DNA of 64,000 bases from Escherichia coli (GTDB lineage: Bacteria > Pseudomonadota > Gammaproteobacteria > Enterobacterales > Enterobacteriaceae), in the NCBI RefSeq assembly GCF_050320075.1, contig NZ_CP190018.1; one strand, given 5' to 3'. Shown here one piece after another: positions 27,071 to 62,812 of this stretch. The position numbers and the translations under genes are program-made. The notes under the pieces are model-generated. The model was given only the letters and a program-made list of their open reading frames with translations, was not told where the DNA came from and did no database searches. Position 1 is the stretch's first letter; every line of letters starts with the position of its first letter.

Positions 27071-28033
<963 letters not shown>

Positions 28034-50863: not shown

Positions 50864-51611
50864 GAGCAATCACTCCCAAAAAAAGATGATACGTCAGAGG
50901 ATATCGCCCCTGTTTTTGTGGCCAGGCCAGTTGCAATCGCTGCAACTGCGAACGCGTTAATATCCGCGGGTCGCGCCCTTCATGAAGATGCGTGGCACCG
51001 ATGCCTTTCAGCGAACGCATGGCACTGAGCGCATCATCAAACCACAGCGTGATGGGCTGAATATGATGTTGATAATGCACGCCGTTCAGTGACTGTTCGA
51101 TTTCATCTGGCGGTAAAAAGCGATTAGCATGCGGACGCTCGTCCACCGCCTGCCACGCCTGATGCAGTTCGGGTAACGATCCCTGCACCAGCGTGGTAAA
51201 CGCGACCACGCCTCCGGGGCGCACCACCCGATACAGCTCGCGGAGTGCCGTGGATAAATTACCGCACCACTGCACCGCGAGATTGCTCCATGCAAGATCG
51301 AAGGTTGCAGTCGCTAACGGCAGGGATTCGATATCTCCCGCCAGATAATGGTCTGCGGCATCCTTCTGGCGTGCCTGAACAAGCATTGGCGGCGAGAGAT
51401 CTAACGCCGTCACCTGCGCGTGACGTTCCCGCCAATGACGGCTCATCCAGCCAGGTCCACAACCCGCATCCAGTACGTGGGTGTATTTACGCTGTGGGAG
51501 CATTGCCAGTAAGACGTCAGCACTCTGGCGCTGTAGATCCGCATGTTGCTCATAGTGCGCGGCTGCCCGACCAAATGCCGCTGCAATGGCTTGTTTATTA
51601 ACCGTTGTCAT
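50856..51611 (-). CDS. bioC: Malonyl-ACP O-methyltransferase BioC
   Basis: 251 aa from ATG 51611; SAM-MTase motif LDAGCGPG. Confidence 0.9.
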
Positions 51612-52752
51612 GCAGCACCTCCAGCAGACTATCGATATCCTGCATTTCATGCGCTGCGGTTAGCGTTAAGCGCAGTCGCGCAGTACCAGCGGGTACGGTT
51701 GGCGGGCGAATCGCCGTGACCCAGCAACCTTGCTGGCGCAGTTTTTCTGCCAGTTGTAACGCACGGCTGTTATCACCGACGATCAATGGCTGGATGGCGC
51801 TCCATGAATCAGCAAGCGTAAACGGCAAATCCTGCACTCCGGCACGAAAACGCGTAATGAGTGCCGCCAGTTTTTCGCGCCGTGCATCACCCTCATCACT
51901 GCGAATGACCGCCAGCGACGCACGTAATGCCTGCGCCTGAGCGGGCGGCATACTGGTGCTGTAGATAAGATGGCGGGCGAATTGCAGCAGATAATCCGCC
52001 ACCGTATTGGAGCAAAGCACCGCTGCCCCGCTGACGCCAAATCCTTTGCCAAAAGTCACCACCAGCAATTCTGGTTTTACCTTTTGCAGCCAGCAGCTGC
52101 CACGCCCCTGCTCCCCGATAACGCCCGTGCCGTGGGCGTCATCGACCATCAACCAGCCATCGTGCTGTTGCGTTACCTGCTGGATTTCCTCCAGTGGCGC
52201 ACTATCGCCGTCCATGCTGAACACGCCTTCTGTCACTACCAGTTGCTGCCCCGGACAGGGGGAAGCAAGCAGTCGCGCCAGATGAGTGACATCGTTATGA
52301 GCAAAACGGCGAAGCGGCGACGGGCTTAAACTTGCAGCCTCCAGCAATGAGGCATGGCTAAGCCGGTCGGCAACAATACGGTCCTCTTTCGCCATCATCG
52401 CGGTAATAACTGCCTGGTTAGCGGCAAAACCAGAGATAAACAGCAGTGCCCGCGAATAGCCCAGCCACTCGGCCAGTTCTTCTTCCAGCGCCTGATGCGC
52501 CACGCTATAACCGCTGACGTGACCGGAGCCGCCGCTACCGACGCCAAATTGCTCCGCACTCAGCTTCCAGGCACGGATAATTTGCGGATGATGGCTTAAA
52601 CCTAAATAATCGTTACTGGAAAAGTTCAGATACTGGCGATCGTCCGCCACCAGCCAGCGTCCGGCTCCTTGCGCCACTGGATAACGGCGACGCAGGGCAT
52701 CGGCAGCACGCCGCGCATCGAGCGCCGCGTTGATTTTCTCCTGCCAGCTCAT
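51598..52752 (-). CDS. bioF: 8-amino-7-oxononanoate synthase BioF
   Basis: 384-aa PLP aminotransferase class II translation. Confidence 0.9.
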
Positions 52753-53789
52753 AGTGCTGCCGCGTTGTAATATTCGTCAGTGTCCGGGGTCATCAGCGCC
52801 TGCTCCAGACGCTGCTGTTGTTCGTTATCGCCCGCCAGCACGGCAGTTTGCTGCGGATTTAGCCCCAGTTTGCGGAACAGTTGCAGGTCTTTATCTTCTT
52901 CCGGATTCGGCGTGGTCAGCAGTTTGCAACCGTAGAAAATCGAGTTTGCGCCAGCCATAAAGCACATCGCCTGAGTCTGTTCGTTCATCTGCTCGCGTCC
53001 GGCAGAAAGGCGTACGTAAGAGGTCGGCATCATGATCCGCGCAACTGCAATGGTGCGAATAAAATCAAAGGCATCGACATCATCGTTATCAGCAAGCGGC
53101 GTGCCTTTCACCTTCACCAGCATGTTGATTGGTACGCTTTCCGGCGGCGTTGGCAGGTTTGCCAGTTGCAGCAATAATCCGGCGCGATCTTTTACTGTTT
53201 CGCCTAAGCCCACAATGCCGCCCGAGCAGACTTTGATCCCGGCGTCGCGCACTTTTTCCAGCGTATCGAGGCGTTCCTGATAGGTACGCGTGGTGATGAT
53301 ATTGCCGTAAAACTCCGGCGAGGTGTCGAGGTTGTGGTTGTAGTAATCCAGCCCGGCGTTCGCAAGGCGCTGCGCCTGAGATTCACTCAACGTACCCAGC
53401 GTCATACACGCCTCCAGCCCCATCGCTTTTACTCCCTGCACCATTTGTTCCAGGTAGGGCATATCGCGTTCGTGGGGATTCTTCCACGCCGCGCCCATGC
53501 AGAAGCGCGTCGATCCTGCCGCTTTCGCTTTGCGCGCCGACTCCAGCACCTGTTCAACTTCCATCAACCGCTCGGCTTCCAGCCCGGTTTTGTAGCGCGA
53601 GCTTTGCGGGCAGTATTTGCAATCTTCCGGACAAGCTCCGGTCTTAATCGACAGCAAAGTGCTGACCTGCACCTGACGTGGATCGAAATGCTGACGATGC
53701 ACCTGCTGCGCTTCAAACAGCAGATCCAGCAACGGTTTTTCAAATAATTCTGTGACTTGCGACAATGTCCAGCGTGGGCGGTGAGCCAT
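52749..53789 (-). CDS. bioB: Biotin synthase BioB (radical SAM)
   Basis: 346 aa; CPEDCKYC motif; ATG confirmed at 53787-53789. Confidence 0.95.
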
Positions 53790-53834
53790 AGGGCTTCTCC
53801 AAAACGTGTTTTTTGTTGTTAATTCGGTGTAGAC

Positions 53835-53869
53835 TCGTAAACCTAAATCTTTTCAATTTGGTTTACAAG
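53835..53869. promoter_or_regulatory. bio operator (BirA binding site) in the divergent bioA / bioBFCD control region
   Basis: Imperfect palindrome tcgtaaacctaaatcttttcaatttggtttacaag (gtaaacc ... ggtttac). Confidence 0.7.
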
Positions 53870-53875
53870 TCGATT

Positions 53876-55165
53876 ATGACAACGGACGATCTTGCCTTTG
53901 ACCAACGCCATATCTGGCACCCATACACATCCATGACCTCCCCGCTACCGGTTTATCCAGTGGCGAGCGCCGAGGGTTGCGAGCTAATTTTGTCTGACGG
54001 CAGACGCCTTGTTGACGGTATGTCGTCCTGGTGGGCGGCGATCCACGGTTACAATCACCCGCAGCTTAATGCGGCGATGAAATCGCAAATTGATGCTATG
54101 TCGCATGTGATGTTTGGCGGTATCACCCATGCGCCCGCCATTGAGCTGTGCCGCAAATTGGTGGCAATGACGCCGCAACCGCTGGAGTGCGTTTTTCTCG
54201 CGGACTCCGGCTCCGTAGCGGTAGAAGTGGCGATGAAAATGGCGTTGCAGTACTGGCAGGCCAAAGGCGAAGCGCGCCAGCGTTTTCTGACCTTCCGCAA
54301 TGGTTATCATGGCGATACCTTTGGCGCGATGTCGGTGTGCGATCCGGACAACTCAATGCACAGCCTGTGGAAAGGCTATCTGCCAGAAAACTTGTTTGCT
54401 CCCGCCCCGCAAAGCCGCCTGGATGGTGAATGGGATGAACGCGATATGGTGGGCTTTGCCCGCCTGATGGCGGCGCATCGTCATGAAATCGCCGCAGTGA
54501 TCATTGAACCGATTGTCCAGGGCGCAGGCGGGATGCGCATCTACCATCCGGAATGGTTAAAACGAATCCGCAAAATGTGCGATCGCGAAGGTATCTTGCT
54601 GATTGCCGACGAGATCGCCACCGGATTTGGTCGTACCGGCAAACTGTTTGCCTGTGAACATGCAGAAATCGCGCCGGATATTTTGTGTCTCGGTAAAGCC
54701 TTAACCGGCGGCACAATGACCCTTTCCGCCACGCTCACCACGCGCGAGGTTGCGGAAACCATCAGTAACGGCGAAGCCGGCTGCTTTATGCATGGGCCAA
54801 CTTTTATGGGCAATCCGCTGGCCTGCGCAGCAGCAAACGCCAGCCTGGCGATTCTCGAATCTGGCGACTGGCAGCATCAGGTGGCGGCTATTGAAGGGCA
54901 GCTACGCGAGCAACTTGCCCCCGCCTGTGACGCCGAAATGGTTGCCGATGTGCGCGTACTGGGGGCAATCGGCGTGGTCGAAACCACTCGTCCGGTGAAT
55001 ATGGCAGCGCTGCAAAAATTCTTTGTCGAACAGGGTGTCTGGATCCGGCCTTTTGGCAAACTGATTTACCTGATGCCGCCCTATATTATTCTCCCGCAAC
55101 AGTTGCAGCGTCTGACCGCAGCGGTTAATCGTGCGGTGCAGGATGAAACATTTTTTTGCCAATAA
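53876..55165 (+). CDS. bioA: Adenosylmethionine-8-amino-7-oxononanoate aminotransferase BioA
   Basis: 429 aa from ATG 53876 ([20 protein letters not shown]). Confidence 0.95.
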
Positions 55166-55223
55166 CGGGAAGTTAGCGTGAGGGTTTCTGGCTACACTTT
55201 CTGCAAACAAGAAAGGAGGGCTC

Positions 55224-55700
55224 ATGAAACTCATCAGTAATGATTTACGCGATGGCGATAAGCTGCCGCATCGTCATGTCTTTAACGGCATGGGTTACGA
55301 TGGCGATAATATTTCACCGCATCTGGCGTGGGATGATGTTCCTGTGGGAACGAAAAGTTTTGTTGTCACCTGCTACGACCCGGATGCGCCAACTGGCTCC
55401 GGCTGGTGGCACTGGGTAGTTGTTAATTTACCCGCGGATACCCGCGTATTACCGCAAGGGTTTGGCTCTGGTCTGGTAGCAATGCCAGACGGCGTTTTGC
55501 AGACGCGTACCGACTTTGGTAAAACCGGATACGATGGCGCAGCGCCGCCGAAAGGCGAAACCCATCGCTACATTTTTACCGTTCACGCGCTGGATGTAGA
55601 ACGTATTGATGTCGATGAAGGTGCCAGCGGCGCGATGGTCGGGTTTAACGTTCATTTTCACTCTCTGGCGAGAGCCTCGATTACTGCGATGTTTAGTTAA
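55224..55700 (+). CDS. ybhB: PEBP-family protein YbhB
   Basis: 158-aa translation; last chromosomal gene before the att site. Confidence 0.85.
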   Translation: MKLISNDLRDGDKLPHRHVFNGMGYDGDNISPHLAWDDVPVGTKSFVVTCYDPDAPTGSGWWHWVVVNLPADTRVLPQGFGSGLVAMPDGVLQTRTDFGKTGYDGAAPPKGETHRYIFTVHALDVERIDVDEGASGAMVGFNVHFHSLARASITAMFS

Positions 55701-55789
55701 TCACTCTGCCAGATGGCGCAATGCCATCTGGTATCACTTAAAGGTATTAAAAACAACTTTTTGTCTTTTTACCTTCCCGTTTCGCTCAA

Positions 55790-55804
55790 GTTAGTATAAA
55801 AAAG
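55790..55804. other. Lambda-type att core (attR junction): ttagtataaaaaagc
   Basis: Reverse complement of the 15-bp lambda core GCTTTTTTATACTAA, flanked on the ybhB side by bacterial-arm sequence cgctcaag. Confidence 0.85.
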
Positions 55805-55947
55805 CTGAACGAGAAACGTAAAATGATATAAATATCAATATATTAAATTAGATTTTGCATAAAAAACAGACTACATAATACTGTAAAACACAACATATGC
55901 AGTCACTATGAATCAACTACTTAGATGGTATTAGTGACCTGTAACAG
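55805..55947. promoter_or_regulatory. Lambda attP P-arm (Int arm-type, IHF, Xis, Fis site region)
   Basis: ~140 bp matching, as far as I can recall it, the reverse complement of the lambda P arm (...cgtaaaatgatataaatatcaatatattaaattagattttgcataaaaaacagactacataatactgtaaaacac...ctgtaacaga). Confidence 0.75.
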
Positions 55948-55950
55948 AGC

Positions 55951-55990
55951 ATTAGCGCAAGGTGATTTTTGTCTTCTTGCGCTAATTTTT
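55951..55990 (+). terminator. sib / tI-like intrinsic terminator distal to att
   Basis: ttagcgcaag ... cttgcgctaa hairpin followed by tttttt on + strand, in the position of lambda sib/tI. Confidence 0.6.
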
Positions 55991-56510
55991 TGTCATCAAA
56001 CCTGTCGCACTCCAGAGAAGCACAAAGCCTCGCAATCCAGTGCAAAGCTTTGTGTGCCACCCACTACGGCCCGCATAACCAGTAAGAAGATAGCAGTGAT
56101 GTCAAACGACGCAGCAGTCTTCTTTTCTTTCACACTTTCCCCCACCCAGCATACATACCTTTCTGCCACAGCTGAAATGAATGTCTATTATGAGCAAGGA
56201 GAGGAAATTCGTAATTGTCATCATCAATGGCGATTTGCTGGTACTATCTGTGTTAAGTAATAGGAAAACAAGTAACTGGAGAAAGATTTGATTTACACAC
56301 TATTATAGCAGTTAATAGTTTAAGCTATTGACACTTTAACTATTTTGCATAAAGTTAAACATAACAACCCCATAAATTGATAATGCAAGAGAGTACTGAA
56401 CTAAGTATTTTAGCTCTACCATATTGCCCAGGCAGTATAATATATGATACATTAAAAAATTAGATTTAATTTACTTAAACATCCTAATCACACTAAGAAT
56501 GAAGAAATAA

Positions 56511-57389
56511 ATGCTGTTTAAATATTGTCCTATTAATGAGTATTCAATTAAATCTCTAGTGGAAAACAAACTATATCTTAATCATCTCAACATGATGAAT
56601 GACAGTGCTGAAGGTTTTTGTAAGATAATAAGTGGTTTCCCAGATTATAATGAAAAAACTGAGAGATATGATTTGATAATAAAAACATGGTGTGGAGAGT
56701 CTGGCTGGCTACCTTCTGAATATGAATATAACGAATATATTGATTCAATGAGAGAACTGGAACCAAATGTCCCGCAATTGCTGGACTCTGCAAGGATATC
56801 ATGCTTTACGAATACGGCGTTAAACCCTACAATGTGGGCTCATTATGCTAACAACAGAACAGGTATATGTATAGAATTCGATCAAGACAAAATAAGAGAA
56901 CTAGAGGATATCTATATCTTTGACGTCAAATATAAAGATCGCCCTCCGACTATTGATACTGCAGTACTAACATTAATAGCTGATCAGGTGAACTATAATC
57001 ATGATGCAATTTATGATGATTATCAAGAAAAGTTCAAACATCTTTATGAACAAGCATTTGACGAGGGAAGAAATTTGCTTTTGGAAATTTACAATGGAAT
57101 ATTGGCAACTAAATCTCAAGAATGGTCTTATGAACAAGAAAAACGGCTAATATATATTTTATCCTTCTCACAAGAAGACAAATTGGCAAAAAAATATAAA
57201 ACTGGCATAAACATATCACTCCCTGAAGGATGCATTAAAAGTGTTATCCTAGGTGAGAAGACAAGTGAGCATGATAAAAAACTTATAGTTTCAGCTATAA
57301 AAAAACATTCTAAACACATTAAGTTGAAGAGAGCTACAATAACACAAGGCGAATATTTATTATCTATTCGTGATGAAGTTTTTAGCTGA
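56511..57389 (+). CDS. DUF2971-like protein of unknown function (prophage cargo)
   Basis: 292 aa; N-terminal MLFKY...L.ENKLYL...NDSAEG and central SCFTNTALNPTMWAHYANNRTGICIEF match what I recall as DUF2971 hallmarks; visibly AT-rich by eye. Confidence 0.6.
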   Translation: MLFKYCPINEYSIKSLVENKLYLNHLNMMNDSAEGFCKIISGFPDYNEKTERYDLIIKTWCGESGWLPSEYEYNEYIDSMRELEPNVPQLLDSARISCFTNTALNPTMWAHYANNRTGICIEFDQDKIRELEDIYIFDVKYKDRPPTIDTAVLTLIADQVNYNHDAIYDDYQEKFKHLYEQAFDEGRNLLLEIYNGILATKSQEWSYEQEKRLIYILSFSQEDKLAKKYKTGINISLPEGCIKSVILGEKTSEHDKKLIVSAIKKHSKHIKLKRATITQGEYLLSIRDEVFS

Positions 57390-57451
57390 TGGTATTATAA
57401 TCGAACAGATATTTTCTCCTAAGCGTTGCATTTATCCCACGGTAACATATT

Positions 57452-57490
57452 CATACTCAAATATCCTGCGACATGGAAGATTTGAGTATG
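57452..57490 (+). terminator. Hairpin (11-bp stem, 17-nt loop) downstream of the DUF2971-like ORF
   Basis: catactcaaat ... atttgagtatg inverted repeat 63 bp after stop; weak T tract follows. Confidence 0.4.
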
Positions 57491-57678
57491 GTTGTTCTTC
57501 ATGAGCGAAAAGCAGATGTTCGCGCTAAGGTATAATCAATTGGTTGTTAAATAGTTTAAACACAAGCAATGACTAATAAAACAATGCCACAAACCTTATT
57601 ATTTCTAAACTAGCATTTAGCTTTCAGACAATTTATTGATTGTTAATACATATTTTTAATATTTAATTATCATTTATT

Positions 57679-57689
57679 CCCCCCCCCCC
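57679..57689. repeat. Homopolymeric C11 tract
   Basis: 11 consecutive C at 57679-57689; a second C6 run at 57776-57781. Confidence 0.9.
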
Positions 57690-57882
57690 TCATGCTTATC
57701 AAATACTTCACAACAACGGAATTTTAATCCACATTTGTTATCTGTCTCTATCAGATTCATCCATACCCCCCTCCATTATTATTTAATTTCCAGATAAAAA
57801 TCTTCATCCTGTTATACATATAAAAAAGTGCAATATTTAAATAATGATAACAAATTATTGATTTTGCTCACATAAATTTTAT

Positions 57883-57911
57883 TGACAAGATGATAAGCTG
57901 ATATCTACACA
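57883..57911 (+). promoter_or_regulatory. Candidate sigma70 promoter for the zinc-ribbon ORF
   Basis: TTGACA at 57883-57888, 17-bp spacer, weak -10 tacaca; SD aagagg 5 nt before ATG 57935. Confidence 0.4.
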
Positions 57912-57934
57912 TTGTATTTTCTCAAGAGGAATTT

Positions 57935-58348
57935 ATGGCTGACATTGTCACTGGTTTGACCGCACTCAAAACCGCCTTTGATTTAGCAAAAGATATAAAA
58001 AATGCCACTGGCGCATACAATGATGCAGAAATGAGGCTTAAGTTTAGTGAGCTTTATAGCGCGCTATCTGAAGCCAAAATAGAACTGGCTGATACACAGC
58101 TAGAAATGTATGAACTAAAGCTGAAGATCGAAGAGTTGCAAGCTAAGCTTGATGCATCGGACGAGCTTGAATATAGGGAAAACGTATACTGGAGGGCCTC
58201 ACCTATCAATGGCAAACCAAACGGTCCTTTTTGCCCAAGATGTTATGAAAGTTCAGAGAAGAAGCTATCTTCAATGAGTCAAGTAACGGGGCATGCAACT
58301 ATTGCTGGAAAATACAAATGTAATACTTGTAACGCCTACGTTAGATAA
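57935..58348 (+). CDS. Small coiled-coil protein with C-terminal CxxC...CxxC zinc ribbon (prophage cargo)
   Basis: 137 aa; heptad-like LKFSELYSALSEAKIELADTQLEMYELKLKIEELQAKL; CPRCY ... CNTCNAY; good SD. Confidence 0.6.
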   Translation: MADIVTGLTALKTAFDLAKDIKNATGAYNDAEMRLKFSELYSALSEAKIELADTQLEMYELKLKIEELQAKLDASDELEYRENVYWRASPINGKPNGPFCPRCYESSEKKLSSMSQVTGHATIAGKYKCNTCNAYVR

Positions 58349-58684
58349 AAAGCCGTTATGGGGCTGGGACGGAGGCTCAAATCCTCTCGTGCAAAAATTC
58401 AGCTAAAACTTTTGTTCAGGAGACTCTGAAAGATACCAAGAAGTCTGCTGACGAGTGGTTTATTTACTAATTAGCACGTAAAATCTATTATGGCTGGAAA
58501 TCATTCAATACTCGTACTATCGAAAGTTCGCCAGCCGACAGCAAAACGCTATTGCATGGCAGGGATTGCAGGCCTCTCGATATTCGGTGCTAAGGATGTA
58601 TCAACACGGTTCAGCAGAACCCGATGCGTCTTCAAAACCGCAGCAACGATATCTCTTCCTCCGTTCCATTTACAGCCACCTTTT

Positions 58685-58993
58685 TCACCCTCGATTAACC
58701 AACAACCAGACCAGAAGACACGCTACCACCGGCACAGCAAAATCCATCAGGCTTGCCATATCCCACGCGCGTGGGTCAAAACCGCCCCACCACGGCATAT
58801 TCATTCGCTTGCCATGCCCGAACATTTCGATCCAGCGATATTCTGCCTGGGTGTGTTCACGCGCAATGAAGAACGTACAACCGGCTATCGCCCCGTAAGC
58901 CCAGTTCCCGGTAAAAAGACCAATCAGTAGCTGCGCAGCCACAGCACAAAGCGCATGAAGGAAAGGTGTTATATCCATTTTCATCCCACCCAA
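58685..58993 (-). CDS. Small predicted membrane protein (prophage, unknown function)
   Basis: 102 aa with two hydrophobic segments; several alternative Met starts; lies just downstream of the tail-fibre genes. Confidence 0.5.
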   Translation of the reverse strand: MGGMKMDITPFLHALCAVAAQLLIGLFTGNWAYGAIAGCTFFIAREHTQAEYRWIEMFGHGKRMNMPWWGGFDPRAWDMASLMDFAVPVVACLLVWLLVNRG

Positions 58994-59020
58994 TAAAACG
59001 GGGCGCTCGGCCCCTTAATA

Positions 59021-60061
59021 TTATTTAGACGCAAGCGCCGCATCAATTGCAGATAATCTTTGTCTTAATTCTGCGTTTTCTTCTTCCAGTGCTGTTATTC
59101 TGTCGTCTGACTCTCTGGCTACCTGAACAAGCAAGCCAGTAACACCAGAATAATCTACTGTGTAATAACGTTCACCTTCTTCACCTTCCGATCCGCTCGC
59201 ACCGTCCTGATATTTCATTACGGAACCTACAACTTCTGGGATTGCTTCCAGAGCTTCCTGTGCAATGACACCAGCATAGGGCATACCGTTTTCTTTAAGC
59301 GTGTATGTATAGCCGTTCATTTTACGGATGCGGTCGGTTGCATTATCGATCACCTGAATGTTGTCTTTCAGATCCCGGTCGGAATGCTGGTTAAATGCGG
59401 TGGCATGACATGCACCATTAACGCTTAACATATAGGTGTTATCGGTATTTTTCTGCGCATAGAACATATAAGCGCCACCATCAACACCGACTTCATAAAC
59501 AACAGGACGGCTGGAGTTGCCCCACAATTGAGCAGTAACACCAGCATAAGCGGTTCCCTGTGTGTTTAATGTCATGGTTGACCCATGATTGGCATATTTG
59601 ATCTGTAATGTGTCGGTGTAATCAAATTTAATAAGCGCGTTACTTCCACGCTTGCTGTATGACATAAGGCAGTTACCCATTTTGAGGTATCCGCTGTCAC
59701 CGGGAAAAATCATCGTACCGCCATAAAGGTTGGTAAAGTCCCAGCAAATGTTTGTCCCGTTATCGTTCAGGTTAAGGCGCGCCATTGCGTTACCTGGACT
59801 GTCTATCCATTTTTTGAGGTATAGTTCGCAATATGCATCCTCAACACCTGCCGTCCTGTGAGTTGAGCGGAGTTTTCTCCCAAATATAGCTCCGCTAGTT
59901 GGCAATACCTGCTGATACCATGAAGCAGACCAGTCACCAACGGTTTCATCTTTGCTGTCTACATATGATTTTGTTGCGTAGCTTCCTTGATCGTTTTTTA
60001 ATTTGCTAACGTCGGATTTTAGCGTTTTGATGTCATCAGGAATTACTGTCGATGTAGCCAT
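59021..60061 (-). CDS. Tail fibre / spike-like protein with C-terminal intramolecular chaperone (peptidase S74-like) domain
   Basis: 346 aa; C-terminal SDRDLKDNIQVIDNATDRIRKMNGYTYTLKENGMPYAGVIAQEALEAIPEVV plus terminal coiled coil (ITALEEENAELRQRLSAIDAAL). Confidence 0.65.
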   Translation of the reverse strand: MATSTVIPDDIKTLKSDVSKLKNDQGSYATKSYVDSKDETVGDWSASWYQQVLPTSGAIFGRKLRSTHRTAGVEDAYCELYLKKWIDSPGNAMARLNLNDNGTNICWDFTNLYGGTMIFPGDSGYLKMGNCLMSYSKRGSNALIKFDYTDTLQIKYANHGSTMTLNTQGTAYAGVTAQLWGNSSRPVVYEVGVDGGAYMFYAQKNTDNTYMLSVNGACHATAFNQHSDRDLKDNIQVIDNATDRIRKMNGYTYTLKENGMPYAGVIAQEALEAIPEVVGSVMKYQDGASGSEGEEGERYYTVDYSGVTGLLVQVARESDDRITALEEENAELRQRLSAIDAALASK

Positions 60062-60070
60062 TTTTCTTCC

Positions 60071-60352
60071 TCACATCCAGCCACGAAGTTGATGCTCAAC
60101 AGCAACCACGTATTCATCGAATATTGACGGTGTTTTCACATCATTAATGATGCGCACGTTTACAAAATATCCGTCTTCCTTAACACATACCGGTTCGCCA
60201 TCTTCATTCAGTTCTCCGGTTTCTTTGTACACGTTACCTATCACGTCAATAAGAATATCATCCTGCATCGACTCATCATCATAATAGCCAGTGCTATCCA
60301 TAAAGGCCGAAAAATCGGCCCTGTCGGCAAATTTAAGTGTTAAATCTTTCAT
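60071..60352 (-). CDS. Small acidic protein translationally coupled to stf (possible fibre assembly/accessory protein)
   Basis: 93 aa; ATG overlaps stf stop (ATGA); no family recognised. Confidence 0.5.
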   Translation of the reverse strand: MKDLTLKFADRADFSAFMDSTGYYDDESMQDDILIDVIGNVYKETGELNEDGEPVCVKEDGYFVNVRIINDVKTPSIFDEYVVAVEHQLRGWM

Positions 60353-62748
60353 TTAATACTCTCCCCCATTTGCGCATCAGTTAATTCTTTATGCCAGAGA
60401 CGAAGATTTCTCAAATGGCCGAATAGATGACGTGTCCCTGATGTGGCTTGACCTCCTATTCTAATAAAGGTCCGCGTTTTTACGCCCGTCCATTCCGTTT
60501 CAATGGTTTTAGTAGCCTCACCGTTAGAAACTACTCGTTTAGTACCGTCAGAATAAATATTAAAACCACCAATGAATTTTCGAACATCCGTTCGACCAGT
60601 AAACAAACTAGAAACGTAACTACTTGTCGACGCTTTATAAGTTTGCATATAAAGCTGACCGTAATATCTCTCGGTTGTGTTAAAAGCGTATGTGATTGAC
60701 TCAATAGGCGGCACACCAGAAAAATCAAAAATACGCGGTGCTACATTAGGGGGAATATCGCCCCAATTCCTGTTAACCTCGACCAAACAAGTAAGCGGTC
60801 TGTTATAAATGTTGTTTTCGGTCGGGATCGTAACCATATCACTCGCACGAGTCGCCGCCGTCGCTCCTGATATAATAAAAGATGATACACAAGGCCCATC
60901 TTCTACTTGTGGGGTGGCCAGATAAATATAGTCACCAGATACGGTTGCCCCGCTCTGCTTAGGAGAATACTGTATCTGAGAGCCTATTTTTAACTCCCCA
61001 TCAATTGCCTGAATTGTTGCCTCTGCAAAAATCCATCCGGTAGCTTCGTCCTTTCTGACTCTCGCTGTAATCCTTGAGGCAGCACCGCCTGTCATATTAA
61101 TTTCAAGCGTTTGTGTATCAATATACGCATCACCAAGAAAAGTTGTTGCGCTACCGTCATATTTATCAAACCGGATACGCAACCTTACCTGCAGTTCTGT
61201 TTTAAAACGACATGAGGTTGTCACGTATTTATTATCGCCTGAGACATCAACTGACTTTGTTGCAGCAATTGATGCCATATTAATGGCTGAGGTTTGCCCA
61301 ATCAGAGAATCGTTACAGACAAACTTTCCATAGGTAAAACCAAAACTATCCGTCCCGGTTTCGGGAACATCCATATTTGACGATCGCCCCCAACTGGCAG
61401 GGCTTTCCGAATTGAGCATGTAGTTCGCTCTTTGCCCCTCAATAAGCAGGCCATCACGTTCAAATCGTGGCTCGTCAATGGCAGCCTCTGTCAGCACACC
61501 AGATTTATTAATATAGGTTGCTTTCGATGCGCGTTTAAACTTTACAACCTTATCGCCAGGCATCGTTATTTCATCATCACCAATAACAATCTTTTTATAT
61601 GACGGCGAAAACCCCGTAATCATATCCAGTGAATCGTTAAACGGTATCCACACATCAGGCAACGGCTGCAAAACTTGTTTATACGGCTCCGCTGCCTGGC
61701 TTGCATACTCTCTGGCTGCGTCTTCACTTGCTTTAGCTGCTGTCTGGCTTGCTGCCGATGCTTGCGCCGAGTTCGCCGCTGTAGTCTCGCTCGCCTTTGC
61801 GTTGTCTTCACTGGTTTTTGCAGCTCTTTGACTGTTGGCTGATGCCGTGGCAGAAGCAGCCGCCGCGCTTGCAGAACCAGCTGCGGCACTCTCGCTTTGG
61901 GCCGCTGCATCCTGACTGTTTTTCGCCGCAGTTTCGCTGGCTTTGGCATTCGTTTCGCTGGTCTTCGCTGCAGTCTCGCTTGTCTTTGCGTTGGTTTCAC
62001 TGGTTTTTGCAGCTCTTTGACTGTTGGCTGATGCCGTGGCAGAAGTAGCCGCCGCACTTGCAGAACTGGCTGCCGCTCTCTCGCTTTGGGCTGCTGCATC
62101 CTGACTGTTTTTTGCTGCGGTAGCGGAGTTTGCTGCGGCACTCTGACTCGATTCTGCAGCCACCTCGCTATTTTTCGCATTAGTTTCGCTGGTCTTTGAA
62201 GCTGTCTCACTCGCTTTTGAGTTGTTTTCTGATTTTTTGGCTGCAGTCGCGGAGTTTGCCGATGCAGTCTGTGAGGCCGCTGCCGCCTGTGCGCTGTTAG
62301 CTGCATTCGTTTCTGAGGTTTTCGCCGCGTTCTTCGATGATGCCGCTGCAGTTTCGGATGTCTTTGCCGCCGCTGCGCTCTGAGAGGCGGCTTCAGCGTT
62401 GCGTGCCGCTTCTTCCACCATTTCCTGAAAACGGCGCAATGCCTCCGGCATGACATCATCTTCCGTCATGGCACCGAGAAAATCATTCAGCGTCCCCGGA
62501 CTGGAACCTTCATAGACGGTAATGGTCCCGGCATGTGAAGGCGGAAAACCTTCAACCAGCAGGATGACGCTGTACTGGCCATACTCAACGTCCATACTGT
62601 AACGCCCGGCTTCATCAGGATTTTCAGAGGCCACCGTGTTCACCAGTACCGTGGTGCTGTTACGCTTTGCCTTCAGTTGAATAGTGCAGTTCTGTATTGG
62701 TTTTCCCGCACCATCTTTCAGCACACCTGAGATTTTTACTGCTGCCAT
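60349..62748 (-). CDS. stf: Side tail fibre protein Stf-like (lambda Stf N-terminus, Ala/Ser/Thr-rich repeat shaft, LamG-like distal domain)
   Basis: N-terminus MAAVKISGVLKDGAGKPIQNCTIQLKAKRNSTTV... matches lambda Stf as I recall it; C-terminus ...FGHLRNLRLWHKELTDAQ resembles LamG-domain ends; ATG at 62748. Confidence 0.8.
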   Translation of the reverse strand: MAAVKISGVLKDGAGKPIQNCTIQLKAKRNSTTVLVNTVASENPDEAGRYSMDVEYGQYSVILLVEGFPPSHAGTITVYEGSSPGTLNDFLGAMTEDDVMPEALRRFQEMVEEAARNAEAASQSAAAAKTSETAAASSKNAAKTSETNAANSAQAAAASQTASANSATAAKKSENNSKASETASKTSETNAKNSEVAAESSQSAAANSATAAKNSQDAAAQSERAAASSASAAATSATASANSQRAAKTSETNAKTSETAAKTSETNAKASETAAKNSQDAAAQSESAAAGSASAAAASATASANSQRAAKTSEDNAKASETTAANSAQASAASQTAAKASEDAAREYASQAAEPYKQVLQPLPDVWIPFNDSLDMITGFSPSYKKIVIGDDEITMPGDKVVKFKRASKATYINKSGVLTEAAIDEPRFERDGLLIEGQRANYMLNSESPASWGRSSNMDVPETGTDSFGFTYGKFVCNDSLIGQTSAINMASIAATKSVDVSGDNKYVTTSCRFKTELQVRLRIRFDKYDGSATTFLGDAYIDTQTLEINMTGGAASRITARVRKDEATGWIFAEATIQAIDGELKIGSQIQYSPKQSGATVSGDYIYLATPQVEDGPCVSSFIISGATAATRASDMVTIPTENNIYNRPLTCLVEVNRNWGDIPPNVAPRIFDFSGVPPIESITYAFNTTERYYGQLYMQTYKASTSSYVSSLFTGRTDVRKFIGGFNIYSDGTKRVVSNGEATKTIETEWTGVKTRTFIRIGGQATSGTRHLFGHLRNLRLWHKELTDAQMGESIK
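61809..62122. repeat. Tandem direct repeat (period 189 bp) inside stf
   Basis: cactggtttttgcagctctttgactgttggctgatgccgtggcagaag... occurs at 61809 and again at 61998. Confidence 0.8.
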
Positions 62749-62812
62749 ATCCACTCCACAAAAAAGCCCGCCTGAACCGGCGGGCTGTCATAACACTGTG
62801 TTACCTGGCTAA

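Follow-up and report, generated by a model that had tools for sequence, protein, structure and literature searches.

The 64,000-nucleotide stretch of Escherichia coli DNA analysed here (the window) carries bioF, bioB, bioA and ybhB at 51598-55700, followed by the right end of a lambdoid prophage that occupies the classical attachment site of lambda. Beside attR, between the att/sib module on one side and the tail-fibre genes on the other, the prophage carries a short cargo slot with two plus-strand open reading frames, ORF1 and ORF2, which are the subject of this report. Sequence comparison places ORF2 in the family of Rip1 ('ring interacting pore 1') of Escherichia phage HK446, and ORF1 in the DUF2971/PDC-S31 group of candidate defence genes. 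In the reading that we favour, to which we give a probability of roughly 0.55, this slot has collected two independent single-gene cassettes, each of which is most likely an abortive-infection-type defence gene protecting the lysogen. The features that carry this argument are the following.

55791-55805, no strand assigned: lambda att core TTAGTATAAAAAAGC (reverse complement of GCTTTTTTATACTAA), read from the sequence, forming the attR junction with ybhB/bio
55787-56209, + strand: att core and lambda P arm including the sib/tI hairpin (megablast, 95.8% identity)
56219-57412, + strand: DUF2971 cassette, comprising ORF1, roughly 290 bp of conserved DNA before it and 23 bp after it (blastn)
56511-57389, + strand: ORF1, 292 amino acids, DUF2971 / PADLOC PDC-S31, predicted ADP-ribosyltransferase-like
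57924-58392, + strand: Rip1-like cassette, with ORF2, 11 bp upstream and 44 bp downstream (blastn)
57935-58348, + strand: ORF2, 137 amino acids, Rip1 family (PHROG 1244)

The segment at 55787-56209 corresponds to lambda 27319-27742, and HK629, HK630 and DE3 were matched by megablast as well. Within it, the sib/tI hairpin (55944-55993) is an inverted repeat with a fold of -24.3 kcal/mol and a z of -5.07, followed by a T run. The att core, P arm and sib-like terminator are thus conserved, as a preliminary description of this DNA had stated. Lambda homology ends at 56209, and from there an AT-rich stretch extends to the minus-strand tail-fibre genes (59021 onward). The GC content is 0.325 in ORF1, 0.301 in the spacer between the two genes and 0.411 in ORF2, compared with 0.554 in the bio/ybhB chromosome and 0.482 in the tail genes, in agreement with the earlier impression of AT-rich, foreign cargo. 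The same description had placed the two ORFs correctly (RefSeq has the same coding sequences in identical loci), and it was also right that the lambda b-region, or ea, slot beside attR holds genes other than ea genes. No lambda ea gene was found in the slot, judged by the end of the lambda DNA match and by tblastn of ORF1 and ORF2. When both ORFs were compared by tblastn with 50,697 phage records, no match to lambda and no homology to an Ea protein (ea47, ea31 or ea59) was obtained, and no close copy of ORF1 or ORF2 was present in any sequenced phage searched.

Profile-hidden Markov model and structural-neighbour searches, which the preliminary description had proposed as its check, were run with Pfam, PADLOC and Foldseek and led to DUF2971/PDC-S31 for ORF1 and to Rip1 for ORF2. 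The AlphaFold2 (AF2) model of ORF2, built from a shallow alignment and of mediocre quality (predicted local distance difference test score, pLDDT, 73.5), contains one long helix or coiled coil (residues 2-74) and a small zinc-ribbon-like beta domain. In the family alignments three cysteines (C100, C103 and C129) never vary and a fourth (C132) rarely does; a GPFCxxC motif is present. The helix and the four cysteines together bear out the earlier label of a coiled-coil zinc-ribbon protein. Searches of Pfam, NCBIfam and PADLOC gave nothing significant for ORF2. Its sole family match is phrog_1244 (unknown function; 1.3e-16, nearly the whole profile), and gp37 of HK446 (YP_007111990.1), which is Rip1, likewise matches only phrog_1244 (2.2e-53). 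With Foldseek against the PDB, the top two matches of the ORF2 model were the Rip1 chains 9oox_L and 9oox_M (probability 0.85-0.94) from the entry entitled 'Escherichia phage HK446 Rip1 in complex with the phage T6 small terminase'. With a diverse 58-member family profile (alignment A4), the best PDB match was again Rip1 (9oox_L, E 9.8e-6), in an alignment that covers the coiled coil together with both CxxC motifs; Rip1 was reached only with this profile, and a PDB sequence search with the shallow alignment A1 gave nothing useful. Direct comparison by BLASTP gave an E of 2e-8 with 29% identity over 153 columns, and hhalign of the ORF2 clade with the Rip1 clade gave a probability of 97.7% (E 2.2e-12, 130 columns). 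C100, C103, C129 and C132 of ORF2 align with C121, C124, C148 and C151 of Rip1 and are invariant in 18 sequences from both clades. By these comparisons, ORF2 is a full-length remote homologue of Rip1 in the PHROG 1244 family.

The relatives of ORF2 are numerous. Close homologues (52-99% identity, all of about 137 amino acids) are spread across Enterobacterales, and the ORF2 profile, searched against 1.84 billion representatives, retrieved 2,335 clusters at E <= 1e-3, of which 610 reached E <= 1e-10; almost all have 130-155 amino acids and are matched over their full length. Foldseek against AFDB50 returned uncharacterised proteins only, and Pfam on the 58 family members returned only coiled-coil noise and weak YabA or Zn-ribbon matches. 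At the DNA level, the Rip1-like cassette is 73% identical over 473 bp to Citrobacter prophage ends (L002-L005) and 69% identical to a Pantoea one (L006).

ORF1 had been labelled DUF2971-like, correctly so: it matches the full model (1-89) of Pfam DUF2971 (PF11185) at 1.1e-12. The match to PADLOC PDC-S31 (PDLC04990) reaches 9.5e-38, with residues 1-288 on profile positions 8-257 of 259; four more PDC-S31 models match (five in all), and phrog_1762 is matched as well. The invariant residues of ORF1 include C98-F99 (in SCFT), M108-WAHYA-113, T200, K201, W205-S-Y-E208, E210 and R212, with a TK..EWSYExE.R motif in which E208 and E210 lie in WSYEQEKR. E208, E210, Y112 and H111 are unchanged in 16 sequences, including a Rhizobium homologue of only 29% identity. 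A bioinformatic study places DUF2971 in the H-Y-E clade of ADP-ribosyltransferases (ARTs) near DarT and AbiGi and describes a conserved Tyr and an ExE motif (PMC12522546). From the alignment we infer that E208/E210 would be the motif III ExE and Y112 the motif II Tyr. The AF2 model of ORF1, also from a shallow alignment, is mediocre (pLDDT 64.7, below 50 in the motif regions); it is compatible with the ART assignment in the literature and is weak evidence on its own.

Orthologues of ORF1 (67-82% identity) occur in Enterobacter, Salmonella and Pantoea. In a Salmonella integrative and conjugative element (ICE) the orthologue adjoins NsnA/B/C and an EcoRII-type restriction enzyme, in a CP4-57-like island of E. 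hormaechei it lies a few genes from Gabija (GajB 2e-271), and in plasmid-like contigs it stands amid methyltransferases and an ABC-ATPase gene. The DUF2971 cassette starts 10 bp past the end of lambda homology and is 80.6% identical over 1,214 bp to the E. hormaechei island (L014) and 81.5% identical over 959 bp to the plasmid-like contigs (L016-18). By these blastn boundaries it moves as a single-gene unit, and no second gene such as a DarG-type antitoxin was found in the cassette or beside the ORF1 orthologues examined. The experimental precedent for the family is Aristaios, a DUF2971 protein validated as a single-gene, Abi-type (abortive infection) defence in Lactococcus (PMC11381338). The claim that the cargo is uncharacterised therefore has to be amended, since ORF2 belongs to the family of the structurally characterised Rip1 and ORF1 belongs to PDC-S31 and to DUF2971, the family of Aristaios. 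The related statement that neither protein matches one of known function does not hold for ORF2, a relative of Rip1, and ORF1 falls in the candidate family PDC-S31.

Two observations concern the DNA upstream of ORF1. At 56290-56360, inverted and direct copies of TTTAACTAT/ATAGTTTAA surround a promoter-like TTGACA-16-TAAAGT; they are present also upstream of the Enterobacter orthologue and may be a candidate operator for a regulator. In E. coli ECSC054 (L045, 1274-2254), an IS5 element interrupts the conserved DNA ahead of ORF1, some 250 bp from the gene, and may change expression of the DUF2971 gene.

The two genes had been proposed to form one module, and this proposal did not hold. ORF1 and ORF2 are adjacent, on the same strand and both AT-rich, and they are inherited together: among 5,426 complete E. 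coli genomes, 45 have the whole 3.3-kb stretch, in every case at this site. The copies are ~100% identical, however, which indicates one lineage and not independent co-occurrence. Outside this lineage the two genes were never found together. Among 56 loci compared by tblastn, 9 have ORF1 only and 40 have ORF2 only, and the two loci with both genes, L001 and L045, come from the one E. coli lineage; no DUF2971 gene was found in the 40 other ORF2-family loci, and no ORF2 homologue in the 9 other ORF1 loci. The cassettes differ in origin and boundaries, one being shared with an Enterobacter island and the other with Citrobacter prophages, and 545 bp of mosaic DNA with an integrase relic separates the genes. 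In addition, Rip1 (PMC12908700) and Aristaios (PMC11381338) each act as single genes. Absence of joint occurrence in other genomes had been named in the preliminary description itself as a result that would speak against its proposal. A two-gene system was rejected on this context, that is, on 49 loci without co-occurrence, and a single two-component system, for example a Rip1-like sensor with an ART effector, is accordingly very improbable.

The spacer (57390-57934) and the DNA beyond ORF2 contain several minor features.

57419-57520, - strand: relic of the 5' end of an integrase gene (MNMLPWDK...) and its upstream region, with the hairpin 57451-57491 (DNA match of 78-85%)
57679-57689, + strand: C11 homopolymer, non-coding, 245 bp upstream of ORF2 (sequence)
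58393-58470, + strand: DinI-like C-terminal remnant, a pseudogene (annotated in RefSeq at the identical locus, with a 1-nt shift caused by the C tract)
58549-58635, - strand: remnant of a tail-fibre-assembly (tfa) gene (RefSeq annotation of the identical locus)

The 545-bp length, the hairpin and the C11 tract were all as previously described, but the spacer is a mosaic and does not form a single regulatory unit. The hairpin (-22.4 kcal/mol, z -3.67) is the one conserved just upstream of the integrase gene whose 5' end survives here as a relic. That relic matches the start and upstream region of genes for 200-amino-acid site-specific integrases in about 870 of 920 matching E. coli records. The same segment of about 80-90 bp, with the stem CATACTCAAAT/ATTTGAGTATG, stands at the start of the integrase gene in those ~870 records, and it may be a conserved regulatory hairpin of that gene. 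For 57520-57923, the part with the C tract, no relatives were detected beyond the 45 genomes; similarity to the ORF2 loci of Citrobacter sets in only 11 bp before the ORF2 ATG. Farther out, a short block TTGATTTnnCTCACATAAA..ATTnACAA (57856-57890) is common to the DNA upstream of the Citrobacter homologues; on the minus strand it reads as a promoter-like TTGTCA-16-CAAAAT pointing outward. A 33-nt direct repeat (57628-57660 and 57850-57882, 222 bp apart) is 73% identical between its copies, and Rfam, run on 55600-59100, found nothing in the spacer.

The C tract was also considered. It is C10 in strain 144 and C11 here and, by match length, in two other genomes; in most of the 45 carriers the match is 1 nt shorter, and the difference could be real slippage or an assembly error. 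Phase variation through this tract was rejected because it lies outside any recognisable promoter spacer or ORF and a sequencing error is possible.

The relics that flank the two genes (the integrase 5' fragment and the DinI and tfa remnants) raise the question of whether ORF1 and ORF2 are themselves decaying, non-functional cargo in a degrading prophage end. The IS5 upstream of ORF1 in one strain and the restriction of the stretch to 45 of 5,426 genomes would fit such decay. Both ORFs, however, are intact and full length relative to their orthologues, with the same start codons and all invariant residues. Moreover, the sole difference from strain 144 over 3.3 kb is the length of the homopolymer, C10 or C11, and most other carriers show the same 1-nt shorter match. 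We regard decay as improbable.

The contexts of ORF2 relatives bear on its role. Close homologues are typically the end gene of a prophage (in Citrobacter, Pantoea, metagenomic contigs and 18 IMG/VR viral contigs), and in 16 of the 18 IMG/VR loci no more than about 3 kb separates the gene from the contig end, and it points inward and opposes the tail genes, in a moron-like manner. Next to it stand variable SOS-type morons (UmuD-like phrog_3469, phrog_3893, UmuC-like, S24, SRAP and DinI), sometimes with an anti-repressor or invertase gene nearby, and beyond these follow lambda-like gpJ and tail-fibre genes or a Mu/P2-like baseplate. This SOS or damage-tolerance cluster recurs in many Enterobacterales prophages between the Rip1-like end gene and the tail-fibre gene (L002-L006, L027-L043), and its SRAP protein is YedK-like. 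Intact DinI genes in Citrobacter prophages occupy the relative position of the DinI remnant in the window, where the DinI and tail-fibre-assembly remnants are left from such a moron/tail arrangement.

With such neighbours, and with a DinI remnant after it in the window, ORF2 might be a regulatory or DNA-damage-related zinc-ribbon protein tied to SOS-type morons and similar to Rip1 in architecture only; YabA and DksA, which appear as weak matches, likewise combine a coiled coil with a Zn domain. The similarity of ORF2 to Rip1, however, is statistical and full length and so goes beyond architecture, whereas the YabA and DksA matches are non-significant (E 0.12-0.28). The neighbours are variable, on the opposite strand or separately spaced and hence not operonic with the ORF2 homologues, and distant family members adjoin a Type ISP restriction gene or stand in unrelated contexts. 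A role of this kind is therefore quite improbable.

Further observations were made around ORF2 relatives. A distant family member (L021, 1075-1479) shares 19 nt with the 3' end of a Type ISP/IIG restriction-methylase gene in an operon-like arrangement, and in four metagenome contigs (L022-L025) a member lies 23 nt after an unannotated gene of 252 amino acids, for which neither Pfam nor PADLOC gave a match. From this overlap and this neighbour, some members of the family may have partners. The 246-amino-acid gene upstream of the Citrobacter homologues was considered as a DUF2971 relative and rejected (BLASTP E 0.46; phrog_29550). About 250 bp upstream of the homologues in Citrobacter, Pantoea and metagenome loci (among them L002, L006 and L007) lies the reverse complement of a tRNA-like 3' half (TGGTACCCGGAGCGGGACTTGAACCCGC...GAGGGATTTTAAATC), which we take, from leuZ, to be that of a tRNA-Leu(UAA)-like gene; ARAGORN called no complete tRNA at these loci. 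This half, which lies outside the homologues, probably marks a prophage att junction, and in L002 an integrase-bearing island stands in tandem on its other side. A fossil tRNA or att site in the spacer of the window was rejected, the match of the corresponding segment being too weak to claim.

Towards the tail genes of the window, Rfam gave a sub-threshold match to IS009 (RF02111) at 58592-58704 on the minus strand (41.6 bits against a gathering score of 117, E 1.7e-7), overlapping the tail-fibre-assembly remnant and the 3' end of a hypothetical gene. The minus-strand gene at 58685-58993, directly after the tail-fibre gene, encodes a small hydrophobic protein of phrog_1443 (unknown function). 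The DNA of this part recurs in phages 2G7b, Tritos, HannyBb and PhiR63_1 at 91-94% identity, and the gene could have a further accessory or exclusion role. In the minus-strand tail-fibre gene at 60349-62754, the segment 61600-62400 encodes N-terminal Ala/Ser/Thr-rich long tandem repeats (...AAKTSETNAKASETAAKNSQDAAAQSE...), which give rise to a very strong AT skew of -0.5.

For ORF1 and ORF2, anti-phage defence is the most plausible role, and expression in the lysogen, triggers, enzymatic or pore activities and phenotype may be pictured as follows. Rip1, from the Maxwell laboratory, is prophage-encoded and blocks incoming phage; a terminase ring of 11 subunits is capped by 12 copies of Rip1, and the mechanism suggested is based on a pore (PMC12908700). 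A second source cites Rip1 as sensing the small subunit of the terminase (bioRxiv 10.64898/2026.04.30.721860). If ORF2 works as Rip1 of HK446 does, it would wait inactive in the lysogen as an oligomer held together by the coiled coil, with zinc ribbons as its heads. An infecting phage would make its ring-shaped small terminase late, ORF2 subunits would dock on this ring, and the ring would template a roughly dodecameric ORF2 assembly, which would form a pore or block packaging otherwise, so that phage production stops. ORF1, with its predicted DarT-like ADP-ribosyltransferase core and the ExE at E208 and E210, would be activated by infection and, using NAD+, might ADP-ribosylate an essential nucleic acid or protein and thereby abort replication.

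Several points weigh against this reading. For ORF1, the PADLOC scan found no family other than the PDC-S31 models and no DarT model match, and the family profile found no ART among PDB sequences; PDC-S31 is explicitly an untested candidate (bioRxiv 10.1101/2024.01.29.577857). For ORF2, the Rip1 mechanism as used here comes from a PDB title, a meeting report and one citation, and the two proteins are only ~29% identical. Rip1 has a Gly/Ala-rich N-terminal extension and a C-terminal tail that ORF2 lacks, as well as an insertion of about 11 residues by the clade-invariant W86/E89/Y93 that is absent from ORF2 and its whole clade; none of these three residues is conserved in ORF2, and the N-terminus is less hydrophobic (Kyte-Doolittle 0.77 in ORF2, 1.28 in Rip1). 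With these N-terminal, insertion and tail features missing, the trigger or the effector step of ORF2 could differ. Finally, the preliminary description had credited ORF2 with a strong Shine-Dalgarno (SD) sequence and a plausible promoter of its own. The SD is present (AGAGGA, 4 nt before the ATG), but a consensus scan of the plus strand at 57400-57934 called no promoter. No acceptable -10 lies 16-18 nt from the TTGACA at 57883, promoter-like sites in the whole region (17) are not above the shuffle expectation (12.3 +/- 3.8), and the terminator scan called none, with no stable terminator downstream of ORF2 (z -0.26).

The lack of a clear promoter for ORF2 leads to the main rival explanation, in which one or both genes benefit the phage as lytic or early genes, transcribed from pL through int-att after excision and acting on the host or its defences, like lambda Ea proteins or the ARTs Alt and Mod of T4. 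Phage-encoded ARTs that modify host proteins are well known. ORF1 and ORF2 lie on the lambda-leftward strand directly downstream of att/sib, as ea59, ea31 and ea47 do, and this position downstream of int-att on the pL strand means that they could be early lytic genes. The first position on the inner side of att is consistently taken by the close ORF2 homologues, which would therefore follow int-att on the circular phage. Against this, ORF1 orthologues reside among defence systems on non-phage elements (the ICE, the CP4-57-like island and plasmid-like contigs), and ORF1 carries its ~290 bp of conserved upstream DNA between elements. HK446 Rip1 is reported as prophage defence (PMC12908700); its gene is on the strand opposite the pL operon, and the D3112 homologue opposes the terminase genes. 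We consider a lytic role unlikely and keep defence of the lysogen as the preferred interpretation.

If this interpretation is right, the lambda b-region slot beside attR can be a small defence-gene hotspot in natural lambdoid prophages of one E. coli lineage, whose carriers are human, animal and environmental isolates (one record is named ST38). Rip1-like terminase sensing provides a functional lead for a family of >2,300 clusters (50% identity) that Pfam, NCBIfam and PADLOC leave unannotated, and ORF1 is a convenient E. coli prophage copy of the PDC-S31/DUF2971 candidate for experiments. A more far-reaching joint proposal is tentative. In it, the ORF2 clade is a Rip1-like subfamily that serves as the att-proximal end gene of many Enterobacterales prophages and may sense a different ring-shaped assembly or use a non-pore effector, the ~2,300-cluster family would consist of ring-templated sensors with diversified triggers, and ORF1 would become the first Gram-negative prophage-borne DUF2971 ART shown to defend.

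Among known systems, ORF1 resembles PDC-S31 (Payne et al., 2024 preprint), with which it shares a near full-length match, a single-gene unit and orthologues among defence systems. The PDCs are 145 predicted candidates from genes embedded in BREX, DISARM or type I restriction-modification (RM) systems (bioRxiv 10.1101/2024.01.29.577857). PDC-S31 is a 'guilt by embedding' prediction, whereas ORF1 lies on a lambdoid prophage and is not embedded in BREX, DISARM or RM. Our literature search found no mention of PDC-S31, WP_001550856 or WP_001550858. Aristaios (316 amino acids, Lactococcus plasmid pUCCL641_199) has the Pfam domain DUF2971, a similar size and a single gene on a mobile element in common with ORF1; its proposed mechanism is of the Abi type, its host belongs to a different phylum, and the comparison is by description only. 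Among the plasmid matches listed for ORF1 (tblastn, E <= 0.01) there was no Lactococcus record, and the relation is therefore probably at the level of the Pfam family only. DarT, the DNA ADP-ribosyltransferase toxin of DarTG, is placed next to DUF2971 in the literature and has the acidic ExE motif in common, but DarT has its DarG partner, whereas ORF1 has large helical insertions and no adjacent DarG-like macrodomain antitoxin.

Rip1 and ORF2 are both small (164 and 137 amino acids) and similar in architecture, with an N-terminal helix or coiled coil, a short beta segment ('VY') and CxxCY...CxxC, and both are stand-alone genes of temperate phages that oppose the neighbouring phage operon. Rip1 is basic (isoelectric point, pI, 8.6) and ORF2 acidic (pI 5.5). 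In HK446 the Rip1 gene lies between N and an anti-restriction gene, and the D3112 homologue lies between a terS-like gene and terL; unlike these, ORF2 stands at the att-proximal prophage end beside tail-fibre genes and SOS-type morons. Since the Rip1-clade signature (W86/E89/Y93, the insertion and the Gly/Ala extension) is missing, ORF2 represents a separate subfamily. As a side observation, the Rip1 homologues of D3112 (orf25, L055) and VW-6B (L056), both D3112/DMS3-like transposable Pseudomonas phages, are encoded on the opposite strand and flanked by a terS-like DNA-binding gene and the large terminase gene, which would put a putative terminase-sensing defence gene inside the terminase operon of its own phage. 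Taken separately, ORF1 and ORF2 are each new members of existing or candidate families, ORF2 of a divergent subfamily, and no new kind of system is involved. As for the site, the lambda ea47/ea31/ea59 region has the same slot and strand, but its proteins have no sequence relation to ORF1 or ORF2, and two defence-type genes with relics stand here in their place. In this respect the locus resembles the lambda b region and other moron or defence hotspots of prophages (e.g. P2/P4), in which variable, non-essential cargo is carried between conserved phage modules.

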